54,247 nt of DNA from NCBI GenBank assembly GCA_002633005.1, contig NMRA01001106.1:1-54247 (forward strand), written 5' to 3'. Positions 10,372 through 54,222 of the stretch are shown here, piece by piece. How positions within the stretch are numbered: the stretch's first letter is position 1; each line of letters opens with the position of its first letter. The notes beneath the pieces are model-generated. The model was not told where the DNA came from. It saw only the letters and a program-made list of their open reading frames with translations, and ran no database searches. A program made the translations under genes and the position numbers. The stretch is from Phoronis australis. Lineage: Eukaryota > Animalia > Phoronida.

Positions 10372-10518
10372 ATTAACAACCAGATATCCTTAAAAACAAA
10401 TAACAAGTAGATATCCTTACAATACAAATAACATGTAGCTATCTTTTCAATACAAATAACAACTAGATATCCTTACAATGAAAATAACAATTAGTTATCC
10501 TTGCAATACCAATAACAA
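10372..10518. repeat. ~28-bp minisatellite, about 5 copies (aataacaactagatatccttacaataca)
   Basis: Degenerate tandem units. Confidence 0.85.
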
Positions 10519-11822
10519 AACAATGTACACATTTAATGAAAAAAATTAGAAGTTTCGAGGTTTTTTCTCAATATTAAATTCTACAATAAAATGTGTGGAA
10601 AAGGGTGCATGTAAATAATTTTATTTACTCAATTACACTCATGCTGTTTCAAATTATACTCATAAAACACTACATTGACCGGGAATATGAACAAGATTGT
10701 ATTGTAATAATGGTTCGTTGATGAAAATCAACAAGTAAAGGTAAACCAACAATGACTCTCCGTATGACTGCGAATTACGATTTTCTTCAACATTCCGTTT
10801 GAACGCCCACATGATGACAATAAACTCCATATAAATAAACCTGTTACGTAAACAACATGCGCCTCCATCACCTCACGAAAACGATAACACGTGGACATAT
10901 CACGTGACACATACAATATAAGAGACACCTACGGGAACATCACCTGTATGAGTAATTCCAAAATGTGTTTAATACGTCTTGCTGAATTGGGAAATCATTC
11001 AATACACGTATATTTAAAGGGGAGTGTTCCAGTATTTAAAGTCACAATTGTAAATATGGTTACGTGACGAACATTTGCAGACGTGTATATTTTCGCAACT
11101 GTACATGTTAATGATGCGCATTTCCGCTCGTTTTAGTTGAGAATCTCATAAGTGGATATTGACGCAAGTCAGTTTAGACAAAACATGATCACTACATGTA
11201 TGCTCATCCAATACAACTCAAACTGTGTTCAAGGTTATATTGCATCACCACCCAAAGTAGCCACCACTGTGAGATACAGTTGACCTATGCATTATGGGTA
11301 CCCACTCAACTGTCGCCATATGTTAAGAGGTTTCCAAGGCAACTCCGCCCACATTGGAAGTTTAGCAGTTAGAAAGGCAAAGTGAAGTTACGATTTTTCA
11401 ATATTTTCGTGATTTTTTCAAGTAGCAAAACTCACATGGTGTTCTGAAAGTATGAATGTAAGGGGAGATGTACCTTTCAATTAAGCTAAATCTTTTCTTT
11501 TCTCTGATTGTAATGACTGTACTATGATGGCAAAAATCCACTCACTCGACAAACTTACTTTGACGCAGTTACCAAATATAACGAAGATCATGAAGGTATA
11601 AGAAGCAATAAAAGAATGTGCTACAGCTCTGTAAATAATGTAATTGCGAGTAAAATGCAATAATAGAACAATGAAAACCGTTCCCAGTCAGAGCCCCGTA
11701 ACTGCAGATTAAACAGTGACACATTGGGGAGCTCAAAATTCAGTGAAAGCTTTGACCAATAGCAGATGTAGCTTCTGGGTCATGCTTATTGGTGATTTTG
11801 TGACCTATAAAATGCCCGGGTT

Positions 11823-12173
11823 TCAAAAAGGTCTTCCGTTGGGGAAAATTTCCATGCATAGTTGTTTATCACTGTCGCTTATGGAGTCGTTCATGGAGTC
11901 GTAGATGGCCTCGATGCAAATCCCTTGTTCAATCGAACGAGGGGCAATTTCAGCAATCGAAACCGTATGAAAGGGTGGAACAGCCGGAAAAATCAACGCG
12001 TGCACCACGGCCACACTGGCTTCCTGTCGCTCGTCAGGTACAAAGCCTGGACAACCGGAACTACCAGTACCAAAATTTGAACTGGTTTTGTAAAGGGCTC
12101 TGCAACTATCATCTAACTTCGGGTAGACGTCGAAGCCAAATCTATCTTGTGACCACTGCTTTAGCTCGTCATG
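11823..12173 (-). CDS. Last coding exon: catalytic Ser motif GTGSSGCP, IEQG, stop TGA
   Basis: atttcag acceptor, 351 nt, phase 0. HDELKQWSQDRFG...FGTGSSGCPGF...HALIFP...IEQGICIEAIY...GRPF*. Confidence 0.92.
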   Translation of the reverse strand, partial: HDELKQWSQDRFGFDVYPKLDDSCRALYKTSSNFGTGSSGCPGFVPDERQEASVAVVHALIFPAVPPFHTVSIAEIAPRSIEQGICIEAIYDSMNDSISDSDKQLCMEIFPNGRPF

Positions 12174-15100
12174 CTGAAATAGACAAGTTTATAAGCGTGG
12201 ATGGTGCTTAAGATAAAGTTTTATAAAAAGAATACAATTGACTGGCTTGTGTGACAAGATTATTGTAGTTATATTTGAAGGAGAATCATGTCCGCTAACA
12301 GGTGTACCCTATCGCAAGCCGTTCGGCGGAAAACGTCGCCAGTAATGACGTACGAAATTACCACCGAGACTTCCCTCGTGTTTTACGACCGTGATCGTTA
12401 TACATGTATTGAAAGAGTAATTTGAGGGTGAGGTCTAAAGAAGTTGTGCTTTCGTAGTTTTACACTCGCATTTTTTGCTCCATATCTTACGCTCGTATTA
12501 GTAAGCTCGTAATTTTACCAAGACCGGGTCGTTATATTTAGGTCATGCCAGTCAACGCCACTTAAAACTCAGTTGATACTGTTTTGTGGCGCAAATGGTT
12601 TGTTATTCAAATGTATTGAATAAAGAATTCGCGACTTACCACCATCATTTAGAAATTCGACATCATTACACCCCCCCCCGAAAACCGTGTTGAACCTAAT
12701 ATGCTTTTTGTAATGCCATACACTGTGCGACTGTGTGCGTCATCTGCACGAACTGCTAGGAGTAAGAGAAAGAACATTCGCCTAAAATTTGATAGTGAGA
12801 AAACACGGTAACACAAAAAGAAACATTATCAGACTGCCTGCTAGACGTACATTTTGCCACCTCGGTGTGTACTAAAACGGACCAAATTCAAATGCCTGTG
12901 ATGATTGGGTCAGCGAGTCAAAAATATCAGCCAATCTTGGATATTTGTCAATCTTTTGCACTTACATACTTTGCAACCGAGATTTTACGAGCGTAAAATT
13001 ACGGGTGTACAAAGACTGCTTCAGACCTCATGCGACCTTCAAGTCAATTTGTCATTGGATTACTTTACCAGCCAAGTTTCGGTCGTAAAACCGAGCGTAA
13101 TTACTAATCAACAACATCCGTTGTGAAACACGAGTGAAGTCTCTGTCGCAATTACTAGCCTAGTTAGGGGCGACACTTTCCAACGAGAGGCCAACCATAG
13201 TACCCACCAATCCACTGGCAACGTGCCACAATACTTCTGGCTGGTTTACAAAAAACTGTTCCTTATATGGTCAAGCAAGTGTTAGGATCGCGCTATCACC
13301 AAACTGTTCCATGTATAGTCATGTATATGAGTGGGTTAAGCTTGTACCACACTGTTCCTTATATGGTCATATGTGAATAAAGCATTCATCAAATTGTTCC
13401 AAATATGGTCATGTAGATGTGTGGTTTAAGCTTGTACCGAACTGTTCGCTATATGGTCAGACTGTTCCATTTGTTTGGATTATGTTTGCATCAAACTGAT
13501 TTGCAGGGAAGAGATTTCTTTATGTATGCCACAACCTTTGCAAATGAACTCGGGCATAGTAGTTCTTAGCACATTTTGGCAATAGTTTCGTGTATTTGCA
13601 GCGGTGCCTTCTTCGCTGGTTTAGTTTGTGATTCATTACATCCATAGAACAATACACTTAAACTTAACACAGTTTTCATCTTGTGCCTCACAGTTTATTT
13701 GTGCATGTGACAGGGTCGAATAGTATTGCAAACAATATCTGATCATTCAATACCACAGGCCTACCTTTGCGCGAAAGTCGCTCGTCTCCATTTGCACAAC
13801 ACCACACCTGATATCAGCAACTTTAAAATCGCCGTCAGGGTGACCAGCAAAGTGAAGTTGTGTTTCTTTGTTTATCTTCTTAAACCTTGTAAGAGGTGGC
13901 GGTAGAGAGTCCAACTTCTTGCAGCCTTCTATTGAGCGGGGAAGAGGTGCCTGTAAGTCCAACTTCAAAACAGCCACGTCCAGATCATCGTTAGAATACA
14001 CTAGTGAGTCGACACAGCAGCCGGCAACTGACTCGAGTCCAAGCCATTTTGATTTGTCGTAATAAAAGAGCACTGCACTCTTTTTGACTGAAACAAACAA
14101 GTTGACATGTGAAATTCCGAACAGTGTAAAGTCAGGTTACACTGTTTATTTCCATATATATGTAACACAACACTCACATAGGAAAACCAGCAAACTCTAT
14201 ATTTGAATTCAGCGTTTAGAAATAAAACTAACATCGTATAACAACACCGTTCCCAAAGGCATTTCAAGCATGAGTGTAGTCAAAGGTGACCTTTTAATAA
14301 CCCGTGCAAGTTTTACGTTAACAAAAGGTGAAAGGTGCTTTTTGGAAACACGGGTGCATATTATGTTGCTGAGGGCTATCTTTGAAAGAAGTGCTGTCAC
14401 TGAAGAGGCCACCCTCATTTTAAATACCACAGTAAATAAATAAACAGAAACACTACATGATAGCGACCTCCACATTTTTGTATTTTTTCTGGGCAAAACA
14501 AAGACACAAAACTTGAAAATGAACGACAAATTGAAAATTTAAGCAATGAAAAGAGACATCTGAGGTCAAGTAATAAAACTAACGAAGGCCCATGGGTCTT
14601 TGGTCAGGTTGTTTGGATCTCATGAGAGCAATGCCCCCGTCTATTCATGTATAACCTCACACTGAAGTCGTGATCGGTTCACTAGTGCGATTGCTACTAA
14701 AACTCAAGTCAACAAATTTCGGATATAAACCATACTCTGTTATCAGAACGGATTTTATTAACATGCCTATTTGAGAGCGTGAAACGCCCATGTTTTTTAA
14801 TCTTTATTTACATATTGGTTGAGATAAGACGTTCTCCATCACGGCTTTACATCTGATGATAACGCACCTAAACAAGTAATATCCATGAACTTGATTTGAA
14901 CCAACCATGAAGAGTCATTTCTTCTAGACAAGCCTTGTCTGAGATGAGACTCACGGAAAATGGCCTCGACCAAAACTTTACGTAAAAACAAACCGTTAAG
15001 TAAGAGATAATTTTACCCTTTGTTCTGAAAGTAACATACTGAAACATAACAGTGTGCACTTGTTCAATCTCAAGAACAGTAAATCGTACTGAATTTATAT

Positions 15101-18100
15101 TTCTAACTGTTCATTTGATGATTTGAAGAACGTGGACAGTTTCAGGAAACAGTGTGTTGGGGAAAGCATTTGACCTTTCTTTGGATAATCAGAAAATAGT
15201 AGCCTTTGTTTTTACCGTCGTCAGTTTATAGCCTTTTCAAACGCGAAATATTGAACTGGGACTAATTTTGGTCTGCTAGAAATAATCGCAGAAACAAACT
15301 CCTAGAACCTTGTTAGCCATAACACTAATTCCAAGGGAAGATTGTACTGAAAATTGGCGTTCAAGGGCAATTGCCTTGCGACATTCTAGCCCCAAAAACT
15401 GACGGAAAAGGAGTGGGTCTAGGCCGACGGCAGTTTCTGTGCTAAATATATGTAGGAAGTGCGTGCCACGCATGGCGTTCAGTAGTAGTTCCTGGAAGTT
15501 GCTGTGATTAAATGAAATCAAGAAATTTGGTCTCTGCTCTTATCTACGGGAGTCCCGTCATTTTCAGAGCATAACCTCAGACTTGTTTAGTTGGGAATGT
15601 TGGCACGATTACGGGTAACTCTCAGACAAGCAACTTTGCCAGTTTTTATGAACATTAAGCTGAGTGGCAGAGCATTACAATTTTTGTCTAATTTCTTGCA
15701 CAGGTGGATTCTTAAACCAGTGATTTTAGGTATAAAAATGAAGCAAAAATTACACTTTGTGGCCATTTTTGGCGTCTGATTTTTACGGTGGACTCGACAA
15801 GACAAAGAAATGACATGGTTGACTGTTTATAGAAAAACCATCAAGTATACTTTTGCTGAGTTTTGCCTTTTTTCAGGTGTCACGATACTGTAAACAAGAC
15901 CCAGCTTTATTAACCCAGACCAGTGATGACCTCAAAATCAGTTACTTGATCTGTACAGCTGTGGTCTTTGCTGGTCAAGTTAACTCCAGCGTAGCATATG
16001 CTGAGCGTAGCGCTCTGCACGTATTTAAAATGAACCAGAGAAAGGTTTCGCAGAGCGTTACTCAGCAAGAAGTACACCAATCAGGGAACAGAATGCACTC
16101 ACGATCATCGCCGAGTTTTTCAGCAACGTGCCAATTGGTCATAACGTAGTCAGGGCCAACGCGGAAACCTGAACCTGTGCCGGTTTGTCCAACAATAAGA
16201 GCAACTGATGTAAAGGCTGTTGACAAAGATGTGTGGAAATGTGCCGACATCGTCTCTTTGTTCAAATCAAACGCAGGACCGAAGCTACACTGGGGCGGCA
16301 GCTTTCTGGAACTTGTGACAGGAAAGTAATCTAGAAGAAAACAAATGTCAAACCATTTTCCAGTATCATCAATGATCTCTTCAGTAAACATCGAAGTGAT
16401 GTTTATGTCTCCGTTATATTGTGTCACAGGTGTACCTGTCAAACACAACACAATCTACAGAGGTTGACCAGTTCGCTCACACAAGGATAATGATATACCA
16501 AATGAGGTGGCGTGCTGTCATTTCTGAAGAAAAATCGAGGAAGTGACGAGCGGATGATATATTTGAAAATGAAGTGAAAAAGATTTGACATCAACAGAAA
16601 TTCAACATATGTATGAACAAATTCCGTTTTAGTGGCAGAAAACCACTTTGAATCATGCAATTTATTCTGTTCTTTATGTTACATTATGCCACTTTAACAA
16701 TGGACTCGTTCGATATCTCAGGTGGACCATCCACGACTTATTAGAAACTGTTGTCTTCTAGATTTGAAACCAAATGGGGTTCTTTTGCCAAATCGTGGCA
16801 CTCCTTGTGTAATGAGATCGATTAGACTGTATTAGATGCAAAATAAAACTAAAGATGGTGGTAATTAACCTACTAAAGATTACAATTAGAAATGACTGTA
16901 AACTTGAGCGTTGTTTATCTGACATGTTTTAACTAAGTCACTTGGTTAGTGAGGACAGTATCACTGCATTAGACAAAAACAGCTTCTTAATCTATTCGGC
17001 ATGACTTCGATGGGTTAACTTATCAAACCTAAACTACATGTAGAAATTGGTAGTCATCGAGTCTGTTCACACCATGTGTTATTTCACAATCGTTGATTTG
17101 AGCGAGGTGCCATCTGCCGCTATACGAACTACAACACCACCTATTGGAACACAATATACATACTGTATAAGGACGGATGTTCAGACCAAGAACACTGTGC
17201 CCAATTATCAGTCGTAGAACAGCTTGGATCAATTGGTTCCATACACACTGAACTGAATTTATGGTATCAACATCTCATTTAGTGCATTGGGTGAATAAAA
17301 ATCGATAATTTATCATTTAGAAGCTTGATGGGACTAATCATTCCAATTCGTAGTTCGTTAACAGTGAAGTTTACAATTTATGATTGTGCGTAAATAGTAT
17401 AAAGCCAATATTTATGACTTATATTCATACATGTTTACCTGATAGCCTGACGTCAACACCCAGAATTCCCAGCTCACTTTCGTCTCGCTGTGCTCTTATG
17501 TTTATATCTACCCAACCCTCGGGTACTGTTGCCCCGGAAGACTGCAAGTAGTGCATAACAGATCTTCCCAACTCTAAGGACGGATCAGTTGTGGGTGCGA
17601 CTCTCGCTTCAGCTCCCTCAGCAGAACTCGGACGTTGGCTTCCCTGCCTTTTTTTCTTGTGATTCTATAACCAATCATAAAAAGTGCACTACTATGCTAC
17701 CATGGGCTCGGCATGTACACGCGATTAGGAAGAAGCAACGCATAAAATTTAAAAAGCATGAAATTCGTAAAAGTTTATCCACTTAATGAATATTGTAAAT
17801 AATATGAGTATTGACAAACTAGTTAATTTGGTTGAGTAAAGATTATTTAGTTGTGAACAACATTCACGACAACCAAAATTTATCGTCAAAATGACAAACT
17901 AGGGTGTACCTTGAGGACCTCCTTTATTTTTTTAATAGTTTCGGCGGCGATGTTGTTAAAGAACACGTTGCCCCCTTTTCCACAAACATCATAAGCTGTT
18001 TCTCCTGTCTGAAAATTGACAAATGATTATAAGTATTGAATTAAAGGACACATATACAGTATCAGCAGGTACTCATAATGGATAATTTTGAGGATCTTGT

Positions 18101-21100
18101 TGGGATAGATGGACGCAACCTCCCTAACTCAAGTAAGTTTTATTCCATCTTTAGATTAAAAATTTTATCTGAGTCCTAAACATCCGTGGAGAACGAAAAG
18201 GTAATACTCCACTTAAAATACTGACTTCTTTTAGCTGTGGGTTCTTCAAATTTTTAAACAATCACATAGTAACCTGGTTACTACATCAAGTGAATAGTTT
18301 AAATTTGTTAAAAATCCCGTTTCAATAGTCGCTTAGGAGTTTACAAAAAGTAGAAAAGGACTTTGTCAGCAACCTTGGACGCTGTTCCATTGTACCGGGA
18401 CATATAATTACATATACATGTACAACTGTAATGAGTTATGATGCTTAAGAACACTGGTTACCTAACCATTGACAAACATCCAATGCAGATATTGACAGCT
18501 TACATGTACCACACAATTTGACTGACACTCTTATCTCACCGTATTAACAACCGTCGCATCGACACCCGTTTTCAGAAGCAGTTCAACAACTTCTAGATGA
18601 CCACACGAAGACGCGCTGTGCAGCGACGTGTTGCCTCCCTACAAGAAGTATTGAAATTTGTTGACAAACCAAAAACAAGTTTGCACGATATTCAATTGCT
18701 GAATAAACAGCTAGTGCAAATGAAAATTGAATAGTCAAAAAATAAACAGAGTTCAAAATGAAACAGCTATGACTTATTTCAGTCACGTAACAAGGACATT
18801 TTGTTGCCGAACGATTTTGGGCATTACAGAATAGAGCGATATGACACTCTCGGTAAAGACGGACGAGCACGGAAATAGTGCATACAATAGAATTTATTTT
18901 TAAGATTCAGGGTGGTATGCCCTAATTGTTCACGCATCACGTGGTCGTTGGTGTTTTTCCATAGCATCTGACACACCAGCGTGTGTTGTTACTTATTTGT
19001 ACACTCGATTTGTAAATTTTGCTCCTAGATTTCACTCAAGTTGTTTCAAATATGTAACCAACAGCTTTGTATGTGGCGCATGCTCGTTAGGTTGTCTAGG
19101 GCCCAAGGAAACGTCCGAATTGGCTACCTTCGTAAAATAATATCTCAAAATAGCTGGTCCGACTCAGAAACTATTTTCATGCACTGTTCGCTAACACACT
19201 GTACGAAATTGTTTTTGAAAGATGACATTTTTGCATGACAGGCTGTCAAAAAGGATGTTCACGATTTTCATTAAATTTATGCCAAAAAACGAAAAGATGT
19301 TTAGAAACAGTACTAAATTTTGAGATCTCATCTTGAAGATTTATACGAAATAAAATCTGATATCATTGTTTTGTTATCAACGTACCTTTCCTTTCAGATA
19401 AATCACGTGATGTAAATAGTGGGAGACTAGTAAAGAGGTAAATTTAATTTTTTGTAGTTTAATTACAGAAAGTATAAACATTAACTCTGTTAAAATCCAC
19501 ATTTTAGACACTTTTTATAATACGCAGACTACTCAATCAGGCCCACAAAACCATAACACACGTGTATAATGGTAAGCGAAACTGCAGCAAAGATATCATG
19601 TTGCTGGGTGGATAGTATCAAGACACTATCACCTTTACAACGGGATTATGTTTTACAATCACTTGGCTCGCGTTTATGTCGATGACAGGCGGGAATGCAG
19701 ACCGTGCCATCGGTGTCAACACTCAGCAAATGAAGCACCTTCATGCAAAGTGTTTTCGATTCTTGGCGGAAGCCTACATCGCAGAATTATCTGTTGGCGA
19801 TCTGGTGACACTGAACCGAACATCGGCTGGCCGTCGCATGAGTGATGAACTCTTGCTGAGTGGCCGATGTGTTCACGACTCTTTAGATTGTCGTAGGGTA
19901 AGAAACGTCGGACAAGCATTGGTTTGCATCTCAAAATGCCTTAATCACAAATCAGGCGAAGCTCAGCCTATATCGCGTCAACTGAATTCGGTCAATCTTT
20001 TGTAGTAGTGGGAACAGCTTTCAGTAACCAGTCTGTGTTTCAGTAATACACAACGCGTATTCAGAATGCCACTGACATTTATTCGACCACTAAAGCATAC
20101 GCTGTATGAGATTTGTTTACTTGGCACATTGTAATGCACTTTAATTCTAAAGAATAGTAAACGAAAATTTTTGAATAAATAAAGAAAATTGTTGCCCAGT
20201 GCAGAGTATTGTGTGTTTTACGCATTTAGGCACTTGCGCCTATATCCGAAATAACTGCCATCAGGAAATTTTCATACCCAAATGTTTCGCACAAACGCAT
20301 GCATAATGCTTCTCTTATAGGCACAGGTGGATATCCTTTCATGTTTTGCAGGCTCTAGAATATTTCATTTTACGTATTGGCCTAAATACGCGAATATAGG
20401 GTAAAAATACATGAAACACACAGACACACTGGCTTACATGCCAAATGTTCAGAATTTATAAAAGGAAACCAATGAAAAAAAGTTTACTGACACCCCCACA
20501 GTTATTGTCTCAGCTCTACACCTTGGTTCACTAAATTTCCTAGGTAAAAGTGCCCTAAAATATCAAAATTCTAAAATACTTAGCACTTTTTGGAATATAC
20601 CGAACTTGTTGCTTGGGGGTCTAGAAGCTCAATGTTCTGAGTATGTTTTTTATAAATTGGCAGATTTTATTCGTAATTCGGAGAATTGTCGATTTTCGTG
20701 GAAGCATAAACATGGAAATCATAGAGCAACGAACCCTTCACATGTAGTTTCACTTCATAAACGTCAATCAAAAATTAAAACATACACACATTTCCAGTTC
20801 TCAACATGTTCATTTATACAATTTTGTGCATCTTTCAGTAAGGAGCTTCTTGGCAATTTATCCAGTTCTGCGATCAAGAATGGCTTAAAATTTGCACGGA
20901 AAAGATAATGGAAATTGAGGTTTTCACAGCCGAAAGTGCGGGCCTAAAATTCACAATTTATAAGAAAAAAGATTGTGCAAGTGGCGGCGAAAGGTGGTTA
21001 TGACTGGATAGGTGGCACATGCTTAAATACATTTTACAAGCAAGCCATGCCAAATTACGTCGTATGGAGGTCGGAAGTTAACATCATTACAGAGAACATC

Positions 21101-24100
21101 AAGCAAACCACGCCAGGAACATACACAGTCGTGCAGTCGGATCAAAAATAAGACACTTTGATGGGGTTATTGTAAATTCAAGTAATCTGCAGTCCATTTC
21201 TCCTCTGGTGAACTATTTTGTTTTCCATGTACTAAAATGCTCACACCTAAAAATTAAAGTAGGTTGCACCATAGCCATCGATAAAAGTATATATTACCCG
21301 ATAAATTTCATAGAAAAGCAAAGTGATTGAATTATACTGTAATATAGCATCTTTAATAATGATGGAAGTGACTAAATACGAAAAGGGTTGTCATTCTATT
21401 AGTTCATACATTTGAGACTATAAAGTGGAATGCGAATAAATATTTTAAAAATATTTAATTAATTTTAATATTAAAATGATTCGATTTAGTCTCAGTCGTA
21501 ACATGAAATCCATCTTAAGAAATGCGAGTCTCTGATCCTTTCTGAAGATATGAATATTTTTGTTCATTCATTTAAGTTTTTGCGTAATTGCATTTTCACG
21601 AAAGCGCTCGTCTAGCGGAAGGTTTTGACCAGAACGTTTATTCCAAAAAGCATTTGATGCGCTGCGCCGAGAAATATGTCCTGGTACCCGAAATACGATG
21701 GTACTGTGAGGGGTGAACCAAACTTATTTGATGGCTTTCAAACTAAAATGTTTACGTATTTCTTATTTGTGTTCAAGATCCACCATACCAAACATGGCGA
21801 TTTAGTCTTGTCACTTTTGTCTTGACCATCTAGCATCAACAAAGGGTTTTGAGACAAAGATCCACATCTTGTAGTACTTGGTAATTATGAAATGGTTTTA
21901 ATTAATTACTAGAAGATGGGATTCGACACTTTCGTTGAAATTGTTAATAGGAATAGACATTTCAACGGAATATTTAGATATTCATTTATTTTACTCACAA
22001 GGAAACGATTTTGATTGATCCTGATCATAGCACACATTTTGTGTGTGGGCATTATGTATTCCACTAGCAACTGCAACACAAGCGACTTTATTCGCGGAAT
22101 ATCTTCGTATCGCACTGACGTGATTAAAAACCTGCATAGACTTTATGAGGTGATAAAATTAAAATCTATGTCTGTGTTCGGCGCCTTATGGTGTGGTTGG
22201 TTTTTTAGTTAGTATGCCAATAGTATGATCACACCAGCGACTCTGGTTTCACTGCGTGTTCTGGGAAGGTACGTGCAGTGAAGAAGTGACTCTTTGTATA
22301 ACTCCACGTAAAGAGGTTGTTCATTTTTGATGAGATATTTATTATGAATGAACAATTCCTCGAACTCAATATTCATTTAAAACACGTTTATTGGAACATT
22401 TACTAAGCTCGGAGTGCAGCACTCTTGAGATACCTTGTTTACGGCAGTCACCTCACAACTGCCTTTATTGACAAGCAGCTCTACGACCGCTGCCTTTCCA
22501 CTCTGCGACGCCAGGTGTAATGCTGTATCTCCATTCTAAAGTGAACAAAAATGAGAGAATGCCGGTCATCCTTAAATATAGCGAAGTGGGTGTGTCAAGA
22601 GGACGTCACGTTTTATACCTTTCTGTTCCAGAACTTCACCATCAGTTGCATACTTACTGTATGAAGCCGGTGACTCAACAGAGCACGACTACACCTGACA
22701 TTTGAAATCAGATATAAATGAGCGATATTTCTTAAATGCTGACCTGTTTTAGTCACACGATTGATAATATGGTTTTAAATATCACAATTTGATTCTATGT
22801 AGTACAACAGAGTCACATTAATTTAGTGAGTGATATGGAAATGCAAGTAAAGAACCATTGCTCATTGTATAACTCCAGGTGACGAGAAAACTGTTTCTAA
22901 TTACTTAATGTCGCGAGCACGTCATGTCACGTGCACGTCACTCCACGTGCAGTGGAGACAGCATTTACAAACAAAATCACAATTTGTGATTATCTAATTA
23001 AAACACGCAATAATTAGCCTAGTCACGTATTGTGTTCATCAACCTGTGTGTCAATAATTACCTCATCACGAACATTCACCTTGGCCCGGTGTTCGATGAG
23101 ACACTGTACGATGGCTGTATGACCCCCCTGTGCTGCCTGGTGCAGCGGTGTGTGGCCCTCCTATGGAAAGCAGAAGACATTTAATTTGACATTGTTGAGA
23201 GACATTAGATTATAAAAAATATCAACAAAATTTGTTACTTAATAGTTTTAATCATCTCTTGTGTAAACAACTAGTTCAACCAAACAACCTGTGTGTCATT
23301 AATTACCTGAGTACGGACATCCACTGTAGCGCTGTGTTCCACAAGACACTTCACTGTCTGTGTATGACCACCCTCTGCTGCACAGTGCAGCGGTGTCCAG
23401 CCCCCCTATGTAATATATAATGGAGATGTGTGAATGGACGATCAACGTTTAGAGCAAATTAACATACACAGGGGATCAGTGAACTTGAAAGGTGACATAA
23501 ATGAAACATTACTGACCCCTCTAAGACGCTACAATACTTGTAATGATTTCAACAGGAAAATGTTGAGTTTTAGAACAAAACAACAGAGCGTGTTCTGTGT
23601 TCCCTGTCTCGTTACAGGCCGGTAACACACAGCAAGTAATTGGGCGCTGTAAAGTGTTGGACAATCAAAATAACGTAGAAAATAAATCTGAAACTAAATG
23701 AGGCGATCCAGATCGTCTGAAGAAAACTATTGTTTGACGAAATGTAGAATATATATAGGTAAATAAAACAACAATAATGAATCAACTGAAATGTTCGGAT
23801 GCAGCTTTGGCAGTTCTCTGTTGGAAAGCAGACGACATTTATTTTGACATTGTTTAAGGACATTACATTGGGAAAATATCAACAAAATTTGTTCTTCAAC
23901 AGTTTTAATCATCTCTTGTGTGAACAACTAGTTCAACCAAACAACCTGTGTGCCATTAATTACCTCATTACGGACATCCACTGTAGCGTTGTGTTCCACA
24001 AGACACTCCACTGTCTGTGTATGACCACGCCGTGCTGCCCAGTGCAGCGGTGTCCCGCCCCTCTATGTAATATATAATGGAGATGTGTGAATGGACGATC

Positions 24101-27100
24101 AACGTTTAGAGCAAATTAACATACTCGGGGGAGAGTGAACTTGTAAGGTGACATAAATGAAACATTACTGACCCCTCTAAGACGCTACAATACTTGTAAT
24201 GATTTCAACACTCAAGTTTTACAGGTGATTTTAAAACGTTGAAGTAAGAACAGAACATGGTGTAGACGTCGACTGTCAGAAATTACTGAGCGCCTCCATA
24301 ACTTCACAGCGACCCCTCCATGTTGTGTTTATACATCGGTTTAACGGCTTCCTGTTTAATGTAAAGTTGTAATGTTGAATGGACGATTACCTTTAAGAAT
24401 AGAAAAATATCAACGTTAAGTCGCCAAATATATTGTTGACACAATTCAAACCTCACTGTTTCTTAAGACGCATGTACCGGGTACAGATTGAAAATACATG
24501 TCGAAATCATGAGAAATAAAAAGTGTATTTACACACAACATGTTTAGTTAAACTTCAGATAGTCTACAGCTTTGTAACAAAGATAACATTGTCTTAATTA
24601 TAAAATCGTCTCAAGTAGTTTCTATTACCTCGTTTTGCTTGTTAACATTAGCGCCTGCTTTACACAAAACACGCGCCACCTCTGTATGTCCCCACTCTGC
24701 TGCACAGTGTAGTGCTGTGTAGCCGCCCTGCAGAAACAATAAACAAGTTATAGCAAACTTCACAATCATTAACTTCACCGTGAATCTTAATTACTCATCA
24801 CGGAAACGTTGAAATAACACAATTGTACACACAATAACTAAATCTACTCTCTGTTTATCATGCAATATATCAGTTGTCTTGTAATAGATCATCATTTATA
24901 AAGAACAAGTTTACATCGCTTTCGTAGTATGTTTGTTAGAGTCAGAAATAATCCTCAGAGCAAAGATTTGGCATGTTCATTAAAAATATGGGCGACTGGT
25001 TGTAGCTAGAACAATCATTGTTATTGACAATAACATGACCATGATCTTCACATTTAATAATCATTTTTAAGAAATCAATTTCATGAGAGTAAATGGTTTA
25101 ATTCATTTTTCGTTTTTAGCCAGATGAACAGGACGAAATTTAATTTGCTGCAAAAATGTTGACACAAAATATGATGTAATAGACATTAATGTGAAAGTCA
25201 AATATACTCTATTTGAAAGCTGCAATTACATGAGTAAAACTTTCGTGGTCGTCTGGTATCTTTTAATTAGGTCTACCGCAAAACAATTCCTTCTGGACGC
25301 ATGAATTGAAAAAACATACATGTACATGTAGTCAAACTAATTTATGAAGTACGGTTTCATTTTTTCCTGAGATCCAAAATAATTTCTAACAAATTAAAGA
25401 TAGGAACAATCGGAATAAAAGGATAAGAGAACATCAATATAGGGTGAATATGATATTGGCATGGGGTACTATCAAAACGAAACTGAAGTCTGAAGATGTT
25501 TAAGAAAATATAAGTTGGGCAATGTTTGGTATAGGGTTTGTTACAAGCCAAGAACACGGGCACTGGGAACACAATTCCACTTGTCTCGAACAAAATGCTA
25601 GCAGGAACAATATCCTGGAAATGATAAACCCTGCTCTACAAATTAAACACATGAAGAAACACATTTTACCAAAATCAATCTTCTTATCAAGATTGCTATT
25701 CAGAAAATCAATCAATCTTGTGGTTCCCATTTCGACGCAAACCCAACTTGTTCTGTTCTTGAGACGACGTGGCAGTGGTCTGGCCAGGCGAAGCGTTGCT
25801 TTTAAAAAGAGCGCTTTTCCAGACAGTTTTCGCGTGTACACGCGATAAATTGATACATTTGTCAGTTCTTGAATATATTTAAAGGGGCATTTCATTATCG
25901 CAAGAAATCAATTAAAGAGAACGTGACTAACGAAATAAAAGATGTTGCAATTTGAGTTTTTGACATTAAATTGACTCTTTCTACGCACAGACGTTCTAAA
26001 TGCTGTTTCGACAAGGATACAAATTTCTATGTTGTGCTAGAAAATTTTGAGATGATCGCTGATTTACCTCTTGAGATGGTTCTCAAAGAGAGAAAGGTAA
26101 AAAATATGTGGACTCAAAGAGCTTCATATGAAACGGTAATATCACGACCGCTTTAATGGCATGCAAACAAGGACTACCAAAAAGTTCAACATCTTGAACA
26201 TAAGCCGCTTAAACTACACGGCTACATGGCAAAATATGTAAAAAAAACTTACTGATGTGTACATATGGGAAATAATACAGTATAATATAGTAATAGCTCT
26301 CATACCAAAAATTATAACATGAACCGTAAAACATAAGTACAAAATATGGGAAATGATGCGTAATTATAGCAACATATTGCACCGTAAAACTAGTGCTTGT
26401 TTGAAAAATATCTAAATAAATCTTTAAAATTTAATTGTTTCTTAAAATCACTCAAGTAATACAATGCGTCGCGTCTACACCAGTACATCTATTATAGAAG
26501 ACCATCTGGACATCAATAATTAGACATGCATTTGCACGTCAACACTGTACTTCATTTCACTAGAGAATTCAAAATCTGATACAGAGCGATAAAAATGCCG
26601 CCGGATTGAAATCAAGCAAATGTCATTGCGTTCGTTTTAATTGTTTTGAAAAATAAATATTGAGTTCACAATACATGTACAGTGTACATTTATTAGTGAC
26701 CTTTTGAACGGAGCATCAAGATTAAATAACAAAATTAGGCCTATGTCACTTTCGCTTACTTTTTGACAAGTGTAATTCCAAGACAAGATCTTCAGTAGGG
26801 TGACATTCACTCGAAATGATTAATCTCATCATCCAATTTCATCAACCGAGTGCCCAGGAAACATCAAAATACAGCCGCACAACCATGACAAGAATGTTGC
26901 TAAAGTGTATTTTAAAAACAGAGTTACGTCGTTCCCGTTAACTAAGACCTATTATTGAACTCAGTCTCGACACATTAGCATATTGCAATAGTAGTACTGT
27001 AGAGACCAAAATTCTTATGAGAGCACGGGTTTTGGCCACTCGTATCAAGTCCATGTATGCAACTTAGAATTTCCAACATAAGCGTACTGAGATTTTATAT

Positions 27101-36100: not shown

Positions 36101-39100
36101 AACTTCAAGGTTGAGATAAAGTGTTCAACTAGAATTCCCAATTGTACACTGGCCTACATTGTATTCTTATTTGAGTCTGGATGGTGAAATTATTACCCAA
36201 AAACACTGGTAAAGACATCTAACCATAATAGAAGATGATGAAATGTCCTTTAAACCACACTGACGAGACCGTGCTCAAAAAAAATTCTAATCAACTTACT
36301 GAAAATTGTACAATGTATCGCATCTTTAATGCAAGTTTTAAATCGTCTGATAAGTACATACATGTACAATTTTAACGTTTTGACTATGGTGATATACTGC
36401 ACCAAGTACATGTAGATTATGCGGGAACATTTGCTTGAGCGTGAAAGACTATATTATCAAGCTTGCAATAATCATTACTGGTGTCAAGAAAGGGTCGAAT
36501 ATAGTCAAAAATCTTAAGTCGTCCAAAATGCAACTGTAATGAAAATTGCATTTAGGTAATAACACCTCAAGTTCTCAACAAAGTAAATAACATAAGTAAA
36601 ACAAAATTCGATCTGGGTAGAATTCAATAACGCTTGGAACTCGCTAGGCTACTAGTGAGATTACGCCGTGTATTTTAAAAGAGAACGCGTGAATTTGGAT
36701 AGTTTTTCGAAGCCCGAGACAGCTACCGATCTCTACCGGGGTCTCTTTCAGCATGCCTTCTCTAGTTCCGCCATCTTACAGTCGAGCCACTCGTAAATCC
36801 ACAATAACCAAAGCATAGATACATGTCACACCCTCCCAATATACACACGGAATTTAGAAATTATATATCATTATTAAGTACATTTTATACAATACTTTTT
36901 CTTAAAGAATAAAGTCTTTCTTCCTATAGTCCTATACCGCCGCACAACAACATAGAAAATCTGTCAACAGATTCAGGTCAAGATTATTGTTTAACCCTAA
37001 AAAAGTCGGACCCACTTTTCAAAAACTGTCTCTCTGGTGCGACTGTAGTCTGCCCAAATCGGCCAGTTTCTAATTGTTTGCACTATCATCGATCGTTTTC
37101 GGGATCCTTCTGGCGAACCCTGGAGACAGTCGACGATATTGCACGATATTGGTAAATATATTTTATGATCACTGATTCTCATGACTATCCCAATAGCATC
37201 TATAAACTGCTTCTTAGTAAAGTTGCCAGCATTTCCATACTAAACCGTCTTTATACGATAACTTCATTATATTTTTTCTCACCGACATACTACCGTAAAT
37301 CAAGAAAACATCTGCTATATTTACAATTTTTGCAGCTAAATGTGAATATTTTGTTATTACAGTTGTAATGTTACTACGATGTTCACCTGTTGCTTTGGTT
37401 AACAGTATAGAGTGTTGATATAGAAATATTCAACATAAAACCAGGAAAGCAATGCCATTATGATGAAACGTGTAACAATGGTCGTTTCTTTAAAAAGGTG
37501 CACTTCAAGCCAATGATGATCATACGAGCGTTTATGTGTGAATACTCACCCACGAAGTAAGTTCTTGGTCCACATCCCACCCACGATTTATATATTTCAC
37601 AAGTTCAGAACAATTGCCATTGTTTGCAGCTGCCCAAACCTGAAAATAATAACAAAAAACAGATTTTAAATCACGTAGTCTACATTCACTACCAGCATGG
37701 AATCATCCTTACAAGCAGAGAGCTTTCGTAGATGATATGAACAGTCCGGGAGTGCTCGGGTTGCTCATTGATCTTGACGCTGAAGACTATAGGAAAAACT
37801 TTTTCAAACTGTGACCAATGCTCATATCAAAGCTTCATAATAACCCTGCATTTACACAAACTTTAAAAACGAGAAACACATGTATCTGTCTCCTTCTGAC
37901 TCATTGTGTCCACGTTGACCTTCGTGTCCATTTCACCTACTGAAACCAGTTTAACACCATTTTCATTTCCACCTATTATGTTCAATTTCAGCATGCTGCC
38001 TACTGCAGTTAGTATCCTGCCCTCTCAAACATTGTGTTGGGGTAGGTATTAGCCCTTCGGTACCATTTAGCGGGGGGCATCGTCTTGAGTTGTTATTTGC
38101 TCATTCACGTACATGTAGCCTCTCGGAGTGTGTTTGTCGTTGAGGTATCGGCTCGGGTATATATTTATTAAGGATTTTGTGGCGTCATCTTGTTGTTGTT
38201 GTTGTTGTTGTTGTCATAATAAATCATAGAAATACTAACAAAATGACAGCATTTAAAGCGACTGGGTGGGTTTAACAAATTAGGCAACGTGGACCACCAC
38301 CTTTATTATAACCTTGTATCAGCAGTGCTGCAGCGATGAATTTTGTGGGACTGAAAACCCGCGAAACCCTGTGAATCAGCGTGAGCTTAGAATTTTGGAC
38401 TATCAGAAACGCAGACAACGTGGAACTCATATCCTTTATTTCACCAACTACTGGATTTTAACTTGACGTGTCCTTTGACTTAGATCCTCCCCGCGACATG
38501 ACACCATCACTTGACTTTACTCAATGTCCCCGCCCTCACTCTACCTGTTTTGCCACCCCCTTCCTCCTTGCTCGTAACAATAAGTTCTCCGTATCATGCC
38601 AGTTCCCATTTTTCTAATTCCCTGTCGTCGGTACTTCTTTTTTACTGTTTGTTCTTGATTCTTGCCCGTTCTTTGCTTAAGGTTATTTGAGACCCTCGAA
38701 ATATGGTCAAATCTTGCTCACGTTGGAATACCATATCTCACATACGGTATGTGTCATCGGATTCATATGAATCTCTCAGACATAGTAACTGATGCGATGT
38801 TCTCCAAAATCTTGTTAGTAATTGCGTTTCATTCTTTCCACCCGGGGCTATGAAATGTAGGACTTTCAGGATGATTATGAAAAAATCGAAAGGGGCATGA
38901 AACTAAAAGGAAATTATAATTTACAAAACTTTAGTACATTATTTGAGACTTTATTGTGTACATTGATATCGAACAGAATTCAGTAATGTTATTGATACCG
39001 TACATATAGTTTTGCTATGAATGTAGGTTTTATGCTTAAGTTTTCTAAAACGACATAATCACAAGAACCCATTACTTCAAATTGGTATCATGTCAAGAAT

Positions 39101-42100: not shown

Positions 42101-43653
42101 GTCTATTGGCAAGAAAGGGGTACGTTACACTACATTAAAAAAACTTCCTCACTTTCCAGGATCTAAAGCACTAGCACGGACATGTCGCTAACGCAAGTAC
42201 TCCATTTAGGCCTACTGAGGCACCGTACAATATGAACCTGATGCATTTGACCCGGTAACAAATGATAACGTTCTACGCACAATGCATCATGTGAAAGCAA
42301 ACAGTTGATTGATTTATCGCGAGCTTGTACATGAGTTGTCATGGACAGTGTGAGCGCCAGTCAACATTCATTGTTTTTCTTGGCTTGGTATACAGTGGCA
42401 TAACGTTATTTATAGAACATGACCTAAATTAGGACAACTGGACGGTTGCCATTAAAAATGAGAGCGGTCTTGCTTCGCGAGGTCTTGCTTCATAGCCGAG
42501 ATCCTATAGCGTAGTTAACACTGATGCTGGTCTTCTCAGAAGTGAACGTAGAATGCAGTAATTAACGTTCCACTATGAAATGCGCACACAGACCTACATT
42601 CAACAACGCACAAATGCCATGAGCCGTGAATACTTTTGAGTCTACATTCACAGCGCTTTTCTTGAGCTTGACAAAAGGCGTTCCGTGAGAAAGTTATTTG
42701 AAGAACACGACCTTAGTGAAAATATAGACGGTCACCTTAACCAGTCTCGTTTACAATACACCTGGCGAAAACTGTGACATCACTGAAGTCAGTCTTACCC
42801 AGAAGTGAACGTATACTCTAGGAGTTAACGCTCCACTACCGTAACATGCGTATAGAGTTATTCTCCCATCTACATTTTTAGAATGTAACGATATCTTCAG
42901 CCTGACATTTTATTTGCAATGACAATCTGGATCGAGGGGAGTCCGAGTCCAGGTGAGGGCTACACTGATCTTGTTATTTCCAGACATATCATAACAGCTC
43001 AAACCACACCTTCTAAACACACGTTGGCAACCAAATAGAATTTTTGAGTTGAGACAAGAAAAAAAATGGCGACCAGCTTGTGAAATAAGTGCATAAACCG
43101 GTTGAAGACATGAAATTTCAGGCTTGAGGAAGGGAGTGATTGATGGTTGGTTTAGTGTGACAACAATGGTTTGGTCTGTGCCAACAATCGAGTTTTATAA
43201 TGTCCATTGTCAAAAGGTATGCATGAAACCAAACGTGCAGAGGTAAACTTTTATTATTTTCTATGAAGTGGTACTCACCCAGGCTCCGCCCCTCCTCTGC
43301 GGTGATATTGGGAAATTCCTAGTGCGACTGAATTAAGCCATTTTGCGACAGTACAAGGGTGTAACTTAAAATGTCTTTTGCCAACAACATTGACATGAAT
43401 GTGGGTCTCAAAACGTTCTAACTTAACAAACCATTAAGTTGATTGTAAAGTCACGCTGATCGTCGACATAACGCCGCGGGTTAAACAATCAAACTTCAAA
43501 AGCCCTCCCTAAATAAACATATTCAGCATACAAGATTTCAACGACTATGATAGGGGAGGGGTGAAAAGATGAAATGATTTCTGAGAAAACTCTCACCTTT
43601 TCCAATTCTGCCTTATCGAGATGTAAACGACATGATTCCTTGCTGGATGCCAT
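11823..43653 (-). CDS. Spliced gene (13 coding exons, 691 aa): ankyrin-repeat protein fused to a C-terminal FAM111-like trypsin-type serine protease
   Basis: Manual join of 43653-43597, 37639-37550, 24727-24629, 24062-23964, 23405-23307, 23160-23062, 22535-22434, 18638-18540, 18008-17910, 17664-17439, 16435-16103, 14087-13765 and 12173-11823. All introns are GT-AG, phases are compatible, and 2076 nt stay open to TGA. Motifs: TPLH/TALH ankyrin repeats; VMTNWHV (His), DLDVAVL (Asp), FAGHPDG, GTGSSGCP (Ser) and IEQG, matching the FAM111A pattern (TCRHV, LDYAVL, IGHPYG, GASGSP, IEFG). Small additional exons in the long introns cannot be excluded. Confidence 0.85.
12365..13145. mobile_element. Non-autonomous TIR element in the last intron of the protease gene
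   Basis: gagacttccctcgtgttt (12366) is inverted to aaacacgagtgaagtctc (13126-13143). Internal inverted ttttacgacc/ggtcgtaaaa. Confidence 0.55.
13255..13470. repeat. Degenerate ~45-48-bp tandem repeat (actgttccttatatggtca core)
   Basis: About 5-6 cores. Three contain CC(A/T)6GG. Confidence 0.75.
13765..14087 (-). CDS. Exon: protease domain with catalytic Asp (DLDVAVL) and GHPDG motif
   Basis: Within ORF 13747-14100. tgtttcag acceptor, AAG|gtaggc donor, phase 1/0. Confidence 0.92.
16103..16435 (-). CDS. Exon: end of linker and start of protease domain (GSGFRVGPDYVMTNWHV, catalytic His)
   Basis: Within ORF 16062-16451. tttgacag acceptor, C|gtgagt donor, phase 1/1. Confidence 0.92.
17439..17664 (-). 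CDS. Linker exon, NHKKKRQGSQRPSSAEG...LELGRSVMHYLQSSG...GVDVRLS
   Basis: 226 nt open, phase 0 in and phase 1 out (TCAG|gtaaac). Exactly bridges the flanking exons. Confidence 0.8.
17910..18008 (-). CDS. Exon: ankyrin C-cap, TGETAYDVCGKGGNVFFNNIAAETIKKIKEVLK
   Basis: 99 nt, ttttcag|...|gtacac, phase 0/0. G+TA+D+ terminal ankyrin signature. Confidence 0.85.
18540..18638 (-). CDS. Ankyrin repeat exon, GGNTSLHSASSCGHLEVVELLLKTGVDATVVNT
   Basis: 99 nt, cttgtag|...|gtgaga, phase 0/0. Confidence 0.92.
22434..22535 (-). CDS. Ankyrin repeat exon, NGDTALHLASQSGKAAVVELLVNKGSCEVTAVNK
   Basis: 102 nt, ctttag|...|gtatct, phase 0/0. Confidence 0.9.
23062..23160 (-). CDS. Ankyrin repeat exon, EGHTPLHQAAQGGHTAIVQCLIEHRAKVNVRDE
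   Basis: 99 nt, ttccatag|...|gtaatt, phase 0/0. Confidence 0.92.
23307..23405 (-). CDS. Ankyrin repeat exon, GGWTPLHCAAEGGHTQTVKCLVEHSATVDVRTQ
   Basis: 99 nt, catag|...|gtaatt, phase 0/0. Twin of 23964-24062. Confidence 0.92.
23964..24062 (-). CDS. Ankyrin repeat exon, RGGTPLHWAARRGHTQTVECLVEHNATVDVRNE
   Basis: 99 nt, catag|...|gtaatt, phase 0/0. Confidence 0.92.
24256..24352 (-). pseudogene. Decayed ankyrin pseudo-exon
   Basis: Frameshifted fragments WRGRCEVMEAL and TVDVYTM, an acag acceptor, and the adjacent intron motif gaatggacgat shared with the functional twin exons. Confidence 0.45.
24629..24727 (-). CDS. Ankyrin repeat exon, GGYTALHCAAEWGHTEVARVLCKAGANVNKQNE
   Basis: 99 nt, ctgcag|...|gtaata, phase 0/0, canonical ankyrin consensus. 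Confidence 0.92.
25340..31745. repeat. Diverged ~500-550-bp inverted repeat pair (about 25340-25900 and 31240-31745)
   Basis: Colinear inverted matches, e.g. atatttaaaggggcatt / aatgcccctttaaatat and acatcaatatagggtgaa / ttcacccggtattgatgt. Confidence 0.75.
32313..32557. mobile_element. MITE with 14-bp TIR catgcgcgcaccca
   Basis: Perfect terminal inverted repeats. The internal segment 32440-32503 has an inverted copy at about 33442-33500. Confidence 0.8.
34204..35370. repeat. Local tandem duplication (~620-bp offset) carrying the MITE and flanking sequence; the second copy has a further insertion at about 35085-35270
   Basis: Shared blocks cagcttat.ctctgtggtggcatt...gaatgaaacaagtac and taggtcagttact...tagagtttt.ttccgaa. 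Confidence 0.85.
34205..34359. mobile_element. ~155-bp MITE (TIR cagcctcccgttcagtaacgctaggacct)
   Basis: The 29-nt TIR matches aggtcctagcgttactgaacgcacgtctg. Further copies at 34829-34983, about 36620-36710 and, inverted, about 42455-42530. Confidence 0.8.
37550..37639 (-). CDS. Exon: N-terminal ankyrin cap, VWAAANNGNCSELVKYINRGWDVDQELTSW
   Basis: ttttcag acceptor, gtgagt donor, 90 nt, phase 0/0. AAxxG...G.DVD ankyrin-like pattern. Confidence 0.8.
43597..43653 (-). CDS. Proximal first coding exon, MASSKESCRLHLDKAELEK
   Basis: ACCATGG start context, 57 nt, AAG|gtgaga donor, phase 0. Confidence 0.7.
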
Positions 43654-45681
43654 GGTCTATGTCTGGTCATTAGAATACCTGCGGTTATTCTTCGTCGAGT
43701 GAATATTACGCAGCGTACTGAAAGCAATTAAAGTACTCCTCAGTGGGTAATTCCAGAAGTTTCGATGAGTCATTGCTTAAATAGGTTATTGACAGCAAAC
43801 AGGTGGCAGGTTAGGCTTTTATCTGACAATACAGTTAGATAACAAATGTATACTCTGCGCAAGTGATCCTATTTTGAACTTACAGTAGTAGTAACCTGCA
43901 CGGATTTTAAATGCAACTTTCACCAATACCAGTGACACCAGCACTGTGTTGTTATCATAGACATCTTTACACTATACTAACTCTAAACAGTACTGCAGCA
44001 TACGCTCATTCCCGGGCTGTGCTGCGCGGCACACAAAACCCATCCCCCGCTGCACTACTGAGGCCTTCGTTGCGCCCGTTTCGGCACCGCCTTGGTCTCA
44101 TGCAGCTTGGAACCAGGTCCCAAGCACTGTAGAGGCCCTCTATTTAGATTCGAGGTGTTGCATTTTTTCTTGCTGGACGGGATGTAAGACATTTCGGTGC
44201 CTGTAGTGTAACGGGGAGCTGAACACCGGGCAAGTGCATGACGGCGTACAGTCGTTCAGCACTATTGAACTATTGCAGACGTGAGGGGTTTTGAACGTGT
44301 TTCCTTGGGAACTGCCTACCACAGTCTTTTGTCCCGTACGACAACAGGAAGGCCAATTATCTCCCAGGCTTCAAAGGGTTAACACCTGGCGGAATGAACT
44401 GTCTTAATCTCGGTTGTAGTTGGGAGACTTTGGTGATTCAAAAACTAAATATGATCAGCATTTGACAAGGAATTCAGAAATGCTATTGCTTTTATGTTCA
44501 AATATGTTATAAATTAACTTTCTTTTTAGCAGCACAGCCCAGTTGTCGGAGATTAGAGCCGTAGGTTACCGAACTTAATCCAGGTGAAATCATGAACACT
44601 GCCGGCCGGAGGCAAGTCTTCTCAGAAGTGTAGACTGTAGTAATTAACGTCTCACTATGACATGCGCACATACTTAAAACTGTCTTATTTTTCTAACTAT
44701 AGTTTTTTGGTATAGTTAAAAGTCGGTCGGACAGTGCACGCGGCGATGGCAGGAGGGATGAAAAGCGCAGGCCTATACATTTCCTGTTGTTGTTTTCAAT
44801 TCCATCCCGCATGTAACTCCAGTACAATTGAAACAGCTTAAATCACACATTTTAAACACACATGTGCTGCCAATCATACAGGACTTTTAAAAAAATGAGA
44901 CAAAAGAAAAATATCTGGTGACCAATGAGAGTGCTTCGGCGCAGATAGGAATATTGTGATTGATGAGTTGCTTGGCCTGCCCGAACAACGGTGCTACAGC
45001 CACTGATATAGTCTAGTTATATAATGTTGACTGCCTAAAAGGATGCTCCAAGGCTTGCAGACATAATGGATAGCCCGGCCTTCTACACCATTTTCTATAC
45101 AAAGAGGTGTTCAACACCCCTCGCCGCTTTGCCCTGTGACGTTGGGAAATTCCTAGTGTACGTGAAGCCATTTTTAGAGTACGAGGTTCTCGAGTCTTTT
45201 TGTCAACGCAAGAGCGAATTTATTTTTTCATCTCAGAATCTCGAAAGGTTCGCACAATAATAACTATACCGTCACGGTATAGGCCTCGAAGCGGATCTAG
45301 GATACCGAGGGGGACACGTACGATGAGCTCGGGGAATTGGGCCAAAGCGCGATTGTATCTGCACACTGGCAGGCGGCACGCCATTCCGGGGTCGGGGACG
45401 TGGACTTTCTCAGTGTTCAGAAACCCTGTCGTCGGACTAAAACAAAAAAACGAGAACAAGATTCCGCCCCTCGAACTGGGTATGACTCCCCCCACATCCG
45501 CTACCAGTCCTAGTAATTACTGCACTCAATATTTGGCGCTGTTGGATCATTTCATTTTTTCTGCGGCACTGCTAGGGCGGGGCGGGGCGGGCCACCTGGG
45601 CCTTCCCTAATTCCGCCTTGGCCGGCGCCCTTGGAACTTCACGGTGGTGTTCGTAACGCAAAACATTTTAAAAATTCTCAC

Positions 45682-45738
45682 CTTTCCCAATTGTGCCTCA
45701 GTGAGAAGTAAACGCCTTGATTTCTTATTAGCAGCCAT
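45682..45738 (-). CDS. Alternative (distal) first coding exon of the ANK-FAM111-like gene, MAANKKSRRLLLTEAQLGK
   Basis: ATG at 45738, 57 nt, ends AAG|gtgaga in phase 0. Paralogous to 43653-43597 and splices in frame to exon 37639. Confidence 0.65.
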
Positions 45739-46092
45739 ATCGCCGACTTCTCTTCAGAGTCACTGTGGTTGTTATGCGCGAGTAGGCTACGCAGCCGGTT
45801 AAAAATACACTTTTGGTTTTCCCTGAAATTTCGATGAGTCACTGGCCGGGGTAAATAGGTCATCAACGCAGACGGCGGGTTGGTTAACTGATATCTGCAA
45901 CAACACATAGCTGACTTGACTCACACGTGACCGTGCAAAAGATCTTGGCGGTTTATAATCAATACAGCTGAACATGAAACATACTTTTACATGTGGTGTG
46001 ACTCGATCATTGCTGTAATGGCATCAACCCTTGCCGATTCGAAGACAGGACCGTAGTACAAACGATATGGGACTAGAGTCGTGATCCGCAGC

Positions 46093-54171: not shown

Positions 54172-54222
54172 ATGTACAAGGTATTTCTCTGTTCTGATGT
54201 GTGTTTCATAAACCTTTCGCAG

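Follow-up and report, generated by a model that had tools for sequence, protein, structure and literature searches.

An ankyrin-repeat array and a probable FAM111-like protease in one gene of the phoronid Phoronis australis

Does a single gene of Phoronis australis join an array of ankyrin repeats to a trypsin-fold protease, and if so, what might such a protein do? The gene in question lies on the minus strand of contig NMRA01001106.1 (assembly GCA_002633005.1), of which we analyzed positions 1 to 54,247 (the window), a stretch of intron-rich eukaryotic DNA with ~39% G+C. An original prediction, made from the letters of this DNA, had proposed a phase-consistent 13-exon open reading frame (ORF) of 691 amino acids (aa) in which ankyrin repeats precede a FAM111-type serine protease. 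RNA reads demonstrate that the ankyrin array and the protease are one gene. The protease is probably related to FAM111, and the corrected 656-aa protein may be an intracellular sensor of innate immunity that binds a foreign protein and cuts it.

Ankyrin and protease exons form one transcribed gene

Each of the 13 predicted exons lies on the minus strand between AG/GT ends, and the 691 aa contain zero internal stops. The exons, splice ends and open frame of the original prediction hold, with two corrections, a new start of the His exon and an additional start exon. Stranded RNA sequencing, comprising about one-fifth of each of runs X2, X3 and X4 as well as contigs of a fourth run, X1, covers the gene on the expected strand and indicates expression in X2, X3 and X4. 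The features are as follows.

45682..45771, minus strand: exon 1, with 5' untranslated region (UTR) and ATG 45738 (19 codons); RNA ends cluster at 45771 (X4, 7 of depth 29)
43597..43717, minus strand: exon 1b, duplicate first coding exon with ATG 43653 (19 codons); RNA joint reads
37550..37639, minus strand: N-cap ankyrin-like exon, aa 20-49; without Pfam match
24629..24727, minus strand: ankyrin repeat 1 (Ank1), one phase-0 exon; Pfam Ank
23964..24062, minus strand: ankyrin repeat 2 (Ank2), copy of a 657-bp exon-plus-intron duplication; Pfam Ank
23307..23405, minus strand: ankyrin repeat 3 (Ank3), second copy of the 657-bp duplication; Pfam Ank
23062..23160, minus strand: ankyrin repeat 4 (Ank4); Pfam Ank
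22434..22535, minus strand: ankyrin repeat 5 (Ank5); Pfam Ank
22359..22433, minus strand: probable intronic 3' end, with 18 in-frame codons, a stop and AATAAA at 22392-22387; RNA 3' ends at 22359
18540..18638, minus strand: ankyrin repeat 6 (Ank6); Pfam Ank
17910..18008, minus strand: C-cap exon; without Pfam match
17439..17664, minus strand: linker exon, with a basic KKKR stretch, a flexible part and a predicted helix and beta-hairpin; sequence and structure prediction
16103..16330, minus strand: protease exon 1 (His exon), with Phe373-Gly374 and catalytic His424; RNA joints, Pfam
13765..14087, minus strand: protease exon 2 (Asp exon), with catalytic Asp469 and the GHPDG motif; RNA joints, Pfam, alignment
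11823..12173, minus strand: protease exon 3 (Ser exon), with Phe574, catalytic Ser579 (codon 12057-12059) and the stop; RNA joints, alignment
10500..11822, minus strand: 3' UTR of at least 1.3 kb, with AATAAA at 10625; end unmapped

Spliced reads follow the gene from Ank4-Ank5 (40/30/225 reads in X2/X3/X4, the order used throughout) through Ank5-Ank6 (18/23/166), Ank6-C-cap (17/13/115), C-cap-linker (10/11/123) and the linker-His exon joint at 16330 (12/5/82, plus 5/6/4 from a divergent version) to the His-Asp (28/31/160) and Asp-Ser exon joints (24/9/144). Because these reads link ankyrin exons via the C-cap and linker to the protease exons, the array and the protease belong to one gene, and the alternative of two separate genes is ruled out by reads that bridge each step between them. 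The fusion proposed in the original prediction is therefore confirmed by the joints from Ank5-Ank6 through the Asp-Ser exons. Its junctions at 18008 and 17664 are joined in the RNA, whereas 16435, the proposed start of the His exon, is absent among the 15 joints listed of 115, may at most see minor use and is replaced by 16330, which leaves 35 aa fewer. The N-cap to Ank1 joint is supported just by loose read ends from either side, and the Ank2-Ank3 joint is listed for one X1 contig only. The longest support is joint by joint, with zero single reads or contigs covering the full transcript, and the reads are a mixture of several alleles or paralogs. Opposite-strand reads (X2 and X3, depth 1-7) at 16011-17012, over the His exon and its adjoining intron, represent antisense RNA or a repeat.

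The transcript has two starts. Exon 1b, missing from the predicted model and identical to exon 1 at 49 of 63 bases, is spliced to exon 1 in 28/30/222 reads. Its inclusion gives the major form, which starts at ATG 43653; the frame is shifted so that ATG 45738 opens only a 22-codon upstream ORF, which could damp translation. A direct joint between exon 1 and the N-cap (~15/12/35-50 reads) defines a minor form that starts at ATG 45738. The protein is 656 aa long in both. Small deletions occur right after ATG 45738 in 42 of ~230 X4 reads.

A shorter product is indicated by RNA 3' ends at 22359 (X4, 14 of depth 49; X2, 5 of 7; X3 not listed), 28 bases past an AATAAA in surrounding sequence that is not A-rich. 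Read-through past Ank5 into the intron adds the 18 codons and stop to give 233 aa comprising the N-cap and five repeats. This intronic poly(A) site probably yields an ankyrin-only form of the protein.

The protease domain retains its catalytic triad

The triad His424-Asp469-Ser579 is intact and the Gly before Ser is present. The trypsin-fold motifs named in the original prediction (TNWHV, DLDVAVL, GSSGCP, GHPDG and IEQG) and the Ser codon at 12057-12059 were all located as claimed. FAM111A presumably carries similar motifs past its Asp and near its C-terminus. The Pfam model Trypsin_2 matches successive exons in order, with its positions 1-20 at E 0.0045 and 45-103 at E 0.27, both below cut-off. 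His and Ser are 155 residues apart, His and Asp 45, and 77 residues follow Ser. Four protease variants were classified, and none of the read variants listed, beyond which there are over 1,200 more, alters the triad or this Gly. At position 13987 nearly all reads carry Glu for the Asp466 of the window (48 of 48, 34 of 34 and 251 of 252), three residues upstream of the catalytic Asp. Most reads combine an insertion and a close-by deletion of one base each (13934-13939), which keeps the frame within a protease loop. The His exon also scores 22 bits against Pfam Ntox25, below the cut-off of 25; this match was taken as chance because the same stretch runs into the protease His motif. The Ser exon alone gave a predicted structure with a predicted local distance difference test score (pLDDT) of 42 and was set aside.

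A hydropathy scan identified no hydrophobic signal or membrane stretch; the top 19-residue value was 1.47, and both N-termini are hydrophilic. The protein is thus predicted to be intracellular. Ankyrins, the 75-aa linker and the protease fill the 656 residues, leaving no room for a NACHT/NB-ARC NTPase. The linker exon has no Pfam match and a predicted fold with an overall pLDDT of 69; its second half (17440-17580), a predicted helix and beta-hairpin with pLDDT 74-79, may belong to a small regulatory domain. The linker's fold had no match: the lowest E value in Foldseek was 0.42, and the highest Z among 48,161 chains was 3.1.

Probable kinship with FAM111

Which proteases are the closest relatives of this domain? 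The His exon matches bacterial trypsin-like plasmid genes at E 0.2-5 (23 records), of which eight were taken for alignment. The domain aligns with the plasmid trypsins across the exon joints, with His, Asp, GHPDG/QHPxG, Tyr-x-Thr and GSSG-x-P in register. QHPxG trypsins share 57-61 identities over ~220 aligned positions, a small margin above the 51-52 of two other plasmid proteases, and the best full-domain match of the eight reached 25.5 bits. The plasmid trypsins closest to the His exon (L006 2078-5063, L007 1-3142, L008 and L009) have as neighbors an EAD1 protein with an ATPase, a nuclease, or an S8 peptidase, surroundings that resemble bacterial conflict systems. Bacterial QHPxG trypsins and staphylococcal V8/Spl-type S1B proteases have His, Asp, HPxG, Tyr-x-Thr and GSSG-x-P in colinear order in common with the window protein, but are unspliced, prokaryotic and without ankyrins, and have a shorter insert before Ser (His-to-Ser 126 and 146 in the plasmid trypsins L004 and L007).

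A profile of three QHPxG proteins places V8-type proteases on top, FAM111A at 29.7 bits and HTRA1 near 15. Addition of the His and Asp exons of the window (profile A3) raised FAM111A from 29.7 to 45.9 bits. This gain of +16 is the biggest among proteins listed in both searches, and part of it is general smoothing because the next gains are +11.9, +11.5 and +11.0; HTRA1 gained +1.2 (14-16 bits) and MarP +1.9. The His-to-Ser spacing of 155 compares with 156 in FAM111A and 160 in FAM111B (PMC9798293, PMC10920703). Phe373-Gly374, 51 residues ahead of His, matches the offset of FAM111A F334-G335 exactly, with a chance of ~0.004 for a match that was noticed post hoc, and Phe574 at Ser-5 corresponds to FAM111A F536. 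FAM111A and FAM111B (PDB 8S9K, 8S9L; PMC9798293, PMC10920703, PMC7067828) are likewise intracellular S1/Trypsin_2 proteases with the enzyme at the C-terminus. They share the His-to-Ser spacing, the Phe-Gly at His-51 and the Phe at Ser-5, whereas their N-termini carry two ubiquitin-like domains (UBLs) and, in mammalian FAM111A, a PIP box in place of the ankyrin array.

Several results count against a FAM111 assignment or are neutral to it. V8-type proteases still stand above FAM111A in profile A3. In profile A4, built on one scaffold with the Ser region lost, MarP is on top with 25.6 bits and FAM111A has 14.1; alignments A4 and A5 are imperfect. Addition of the Ser exon left FAM111A unchanged (21.5 vs 21.4 bits), and single exons did not retrieve it from the PDB at E 10. 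Only 3 of 23 FAM111A landmarks match exactly, and 32 of 300 shuffles scored at least as high as observed, which is not significant. The valines V347/V351 of the FAM111A alpha-1 dimer helix correspond to Ala386/Thr390 at ungapped offsets, in uncertain register, and most other landmarks are not kept; the His-to-Asp distance is 54 in FAM111 vs 45 here. Spacing also fails to single out FAM111 because it is similar (151) in NAL1 (PMC12012508). The NAL1_N and Nal1_C Pfam models gave no match below E limits of 1 or 10 when exons were searched one by one, fragments that lower sensitivity, and no NAL1 chain is among the PDB matches listed for the QHPxG, A3 and A4 profiles.

The protease groups with the QHPxG-type trypsins of bacteria, with V8-type proteases and with FAM111A, and not with HtrA. 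HtrA/DegP and MarP share the Trypsin_2 fold, and the His exon weakly matches MarP and DegP models; clustering with HtrA is disfavored by the 14-16 bits of HTRA1, by a His-to-Ser distance of 155 vs 108 in MarP-type enzymes, and by the absence of a PDZ domain or membrane anchor, with no Pfam match in the 77 post-Ser residues. The FAM111-type label of the original prediction is likely but unproven: the +16-bit gain favors it, and the MarP-topped profile, the neutral Ser exon and the shuffle test do not back it. We consider kinship with FAM111 probable and refer to the domain as FAM111-like, not as FAM111A/B.

A variable ankyrin array

Each internal ankyrin exon encodes one tandem repeat of ~33 aa in phase 0, and 6 of 6 exceed the Pfam PF00023 Ank cut-off (34-44 bits, cut-off 21.1), in agreement with the six repeats first proposed. 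With the caps, whose exons have zero Pfam family matches, the array occupies aa 20-281. No further ankyrin exons, searched for with a profile from the six repeats, and no protease paralog were found in the window.

Repeats 2 and 3 differ at 10 bases, and all 10 differences change an amino acid, with 0 silent. Of the 6 binding-face positions 5 are changed, against 4 of the other 27 (Fisher p 0.003); the binding face is defined here as positions 2, 3, 5, 10, 13 and 33, which are randomized in a designed ankyrin library (PMC4308713). Variation extends to the ends of the array. The N-cap start has at least seven versions in X4, residue 21 being Trp, Glu, Asp, Arg or Gln (decoded by hand), and its first helix is strongly variable, as is the hairpin preceding repeat 1, which differs among reads in sequence and length. 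More than two N-cap versions in one run point to pooled animals or paralogs. A 6-base in-frame deletion in the C-cap is common (118 of 161 reads, X4). Some read joints skip or reiterate a repeat 2/3 exon. As both exons are 90% alike, this may reflect a repeat number that varies, skipped exons or misplaced reads.

The ankyrin binding face looks diversified, an observation new here. This signal is tempered because the locus is polymorphic throughout, including UTRs and introns, with most reads only 90-95% alike. Other points also argue for caution. The chance of 0 silent among 10 changes is 0.055, which is borderline, and the non-silent excess relative to the flanking intron has p 0.016 with three blocks and 0.07 with all four. 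The signal is drawn from a single repeat pair at positions that tolerate change without selection too, and non-silent read variants also occur in the linker, C-cap and protease.

Homologue searches

Each homologue search used a single exon and was hence insensitive. None of the 37 candidates for the His exon reached E 0.01, and none of the 94 for the Asp exon reached E 10. Among 1.84 billion representatives, the Ser exon had two matches, both judged chance (repeats in unrelated proteins). Pattern-match scans identified none in metagenomes (0 of 595), viruses (0 of 25) or prokaryote genomes (0 of 415); one of 155 pattern matches, L001, was rejected as chance since it falls outside the frame that probably codes. 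These single-exon searches brought up no animal homologue. FAM111-like proteins of coral and lancelet lack UBLs, and the word ankyrin is absent from the main text of the review that describes them (PMC9798293). An ankyrin-FAM111 or ankyrin-Trypsin_2 animal fusion was not found in the open-access literature, supplements excluded, and tables of genome papers may hold one.

What the protein may do

We tentatively favor a role in innate immunity, a reading that we would doubt about as readily as believe: the 656-aa protein would be an intracellular ankyrin-sensor protease that binds a foreign protein and cuts it. The variable concave face of the ankyrins would bind the foreign, probably viral, protein. 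Target binding would then pair two protease domains or relieve inhibition by the linker, and the enzyme would cut the bound target and possibly also itself at Phe373-Gly374. Specificity could be renewed by duplication of exons that each hold one repeat and by point changes, and the ankyrin-only form may serve as a decoy or brake. The immune role suggested in the original prediction gains indirect support from the variable binding face. Precedents exist for these steps. FAM111A restricts SV40 mutants (PMC9798293) and vaccinia, where I3 is degraded (PMC13245274); its activity requires a dimer (PMC10920703), and it cleaves itself at F334-G335 (PMC7067828). The ankyrins of fungal NLRs are under diversifying selection (PMC4986451), and brown-algal ROCO receptors use one exon per repeat (PMC11378527). 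Both receptor groups share near-identical duplicated repeats, variable repeat number, concave-face change and an enzyme effector within one chain with the Phoronis protein, which differs in having no NACHT, NB-ARC or ROC-COR switch, its sensor being joined directly to the protease.

Would a housekeeping or developmental protease explain the locus equally well? The ankyrins would then target a host substrate, for example a nuclear one, as FAM111A does at replication forks, and the variation would stem from a polymorphic genome under relaxed constraint. Expression in all three raw-read runs, the basic KKKR stretch as a candidate nuclear signal, the varying UTRs and introns and the borderline selection tests are in line with this, but the repeat 2/3 changes, none of them silent, are concentrated on the binding face, the repeat joints hint at variable repeat number, and the lack of a close Ser-exon homologue in the 1.84 billion representatives fits fast evolution better. 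We consider this explanation unlikely.

The enzyme might instead act as a tripwire, cutting a host effector of cell death or signaling in the manner of bacterial defense modules that pair a protease with an effector, and its origin may be a QHPxG trypsin captured separately from bacteria, not FAM111. Hyperactive FAM111A triggers apoptosis (PMC11949059), the top full-domain match among the eight plasmid proteins is a QHPxG trypsin, and in L006 and L007 such genes have an EAD1 protein and a nuclease, respectively, as neighbors. However, the plasmid proteins were picked via the His exon, which biases the match, and they are without the long insert before Ser, whose length the window protein shares with FAM111; no effector gene was recognized in the part of the window's frames that was scanned. 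This scenario appears quite unlikely. It is improbable that the binding scaffold carries a weak or dead protease, or that the protein is a variable self/non-self one (for allorecognition or gametes) with no tie to infection: the residues after Ser are unusual (Cys at +2, Gly at +4), which also weighs against an active sensor protease, the dimer valines are not kept and an ankyrin-only form probably exists, but His, Asp, Ser and the preceding Gly are present and unaltered among the read variants listed, and the protein is without signal or membrane stretch.

Neighborhood of the gene

A head-to-head neighbor gene on the plus strand (48400-54247) has an RNA start near 48400 and ATG 51643, its first exon being spliced from 48497 to 51545 according to a loose read end. 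A homologue search with an exon of this gene was empty; its first 40 residues resemble those of the mitochondrial pseudouridine synthase TRUB2, a putative identity that no search match backed. On the minus strand, an open frame at 1476-2246 has a Pro/Thr-rich 36-bp tandem repeat and no useful Pfam match, and is possibly a mucin-like exon of another gene. Intronic repeats at 34197-35365, 44300-44550 and 50537-50888 comprise local duplications spaced ~623-670 bp apart, a repeat that is read on both strands, and a tandem array of five 70-bp copies.

Implications for the FAM111 family and animal immunity

A broader and more doubtful proposal is that the gene represents an undescribed multi-copy family of animal receptor-proteases, with shuffled DARPin-like ankyrin arrays, a FAM111-type protease and an ankyrin-only decoy. 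If this were true, FAM111 proteases would have begun as modular antiviral effectors, before their vertebrate role at the replication fork. A review of the family asks whether antiviral defense drove it and notes invertebrate members without the vertebrate targeting domains (PMC9798293). A FAM111-like domain on a diversifying ankyrin sensor makes this question of antiviral origin directly testable. With such a protein, animal innate immunity would gain a sensor-effector design that has no switch, and the ankyrin-protease would constitute a natural programmable fusion of a binder and a protease.

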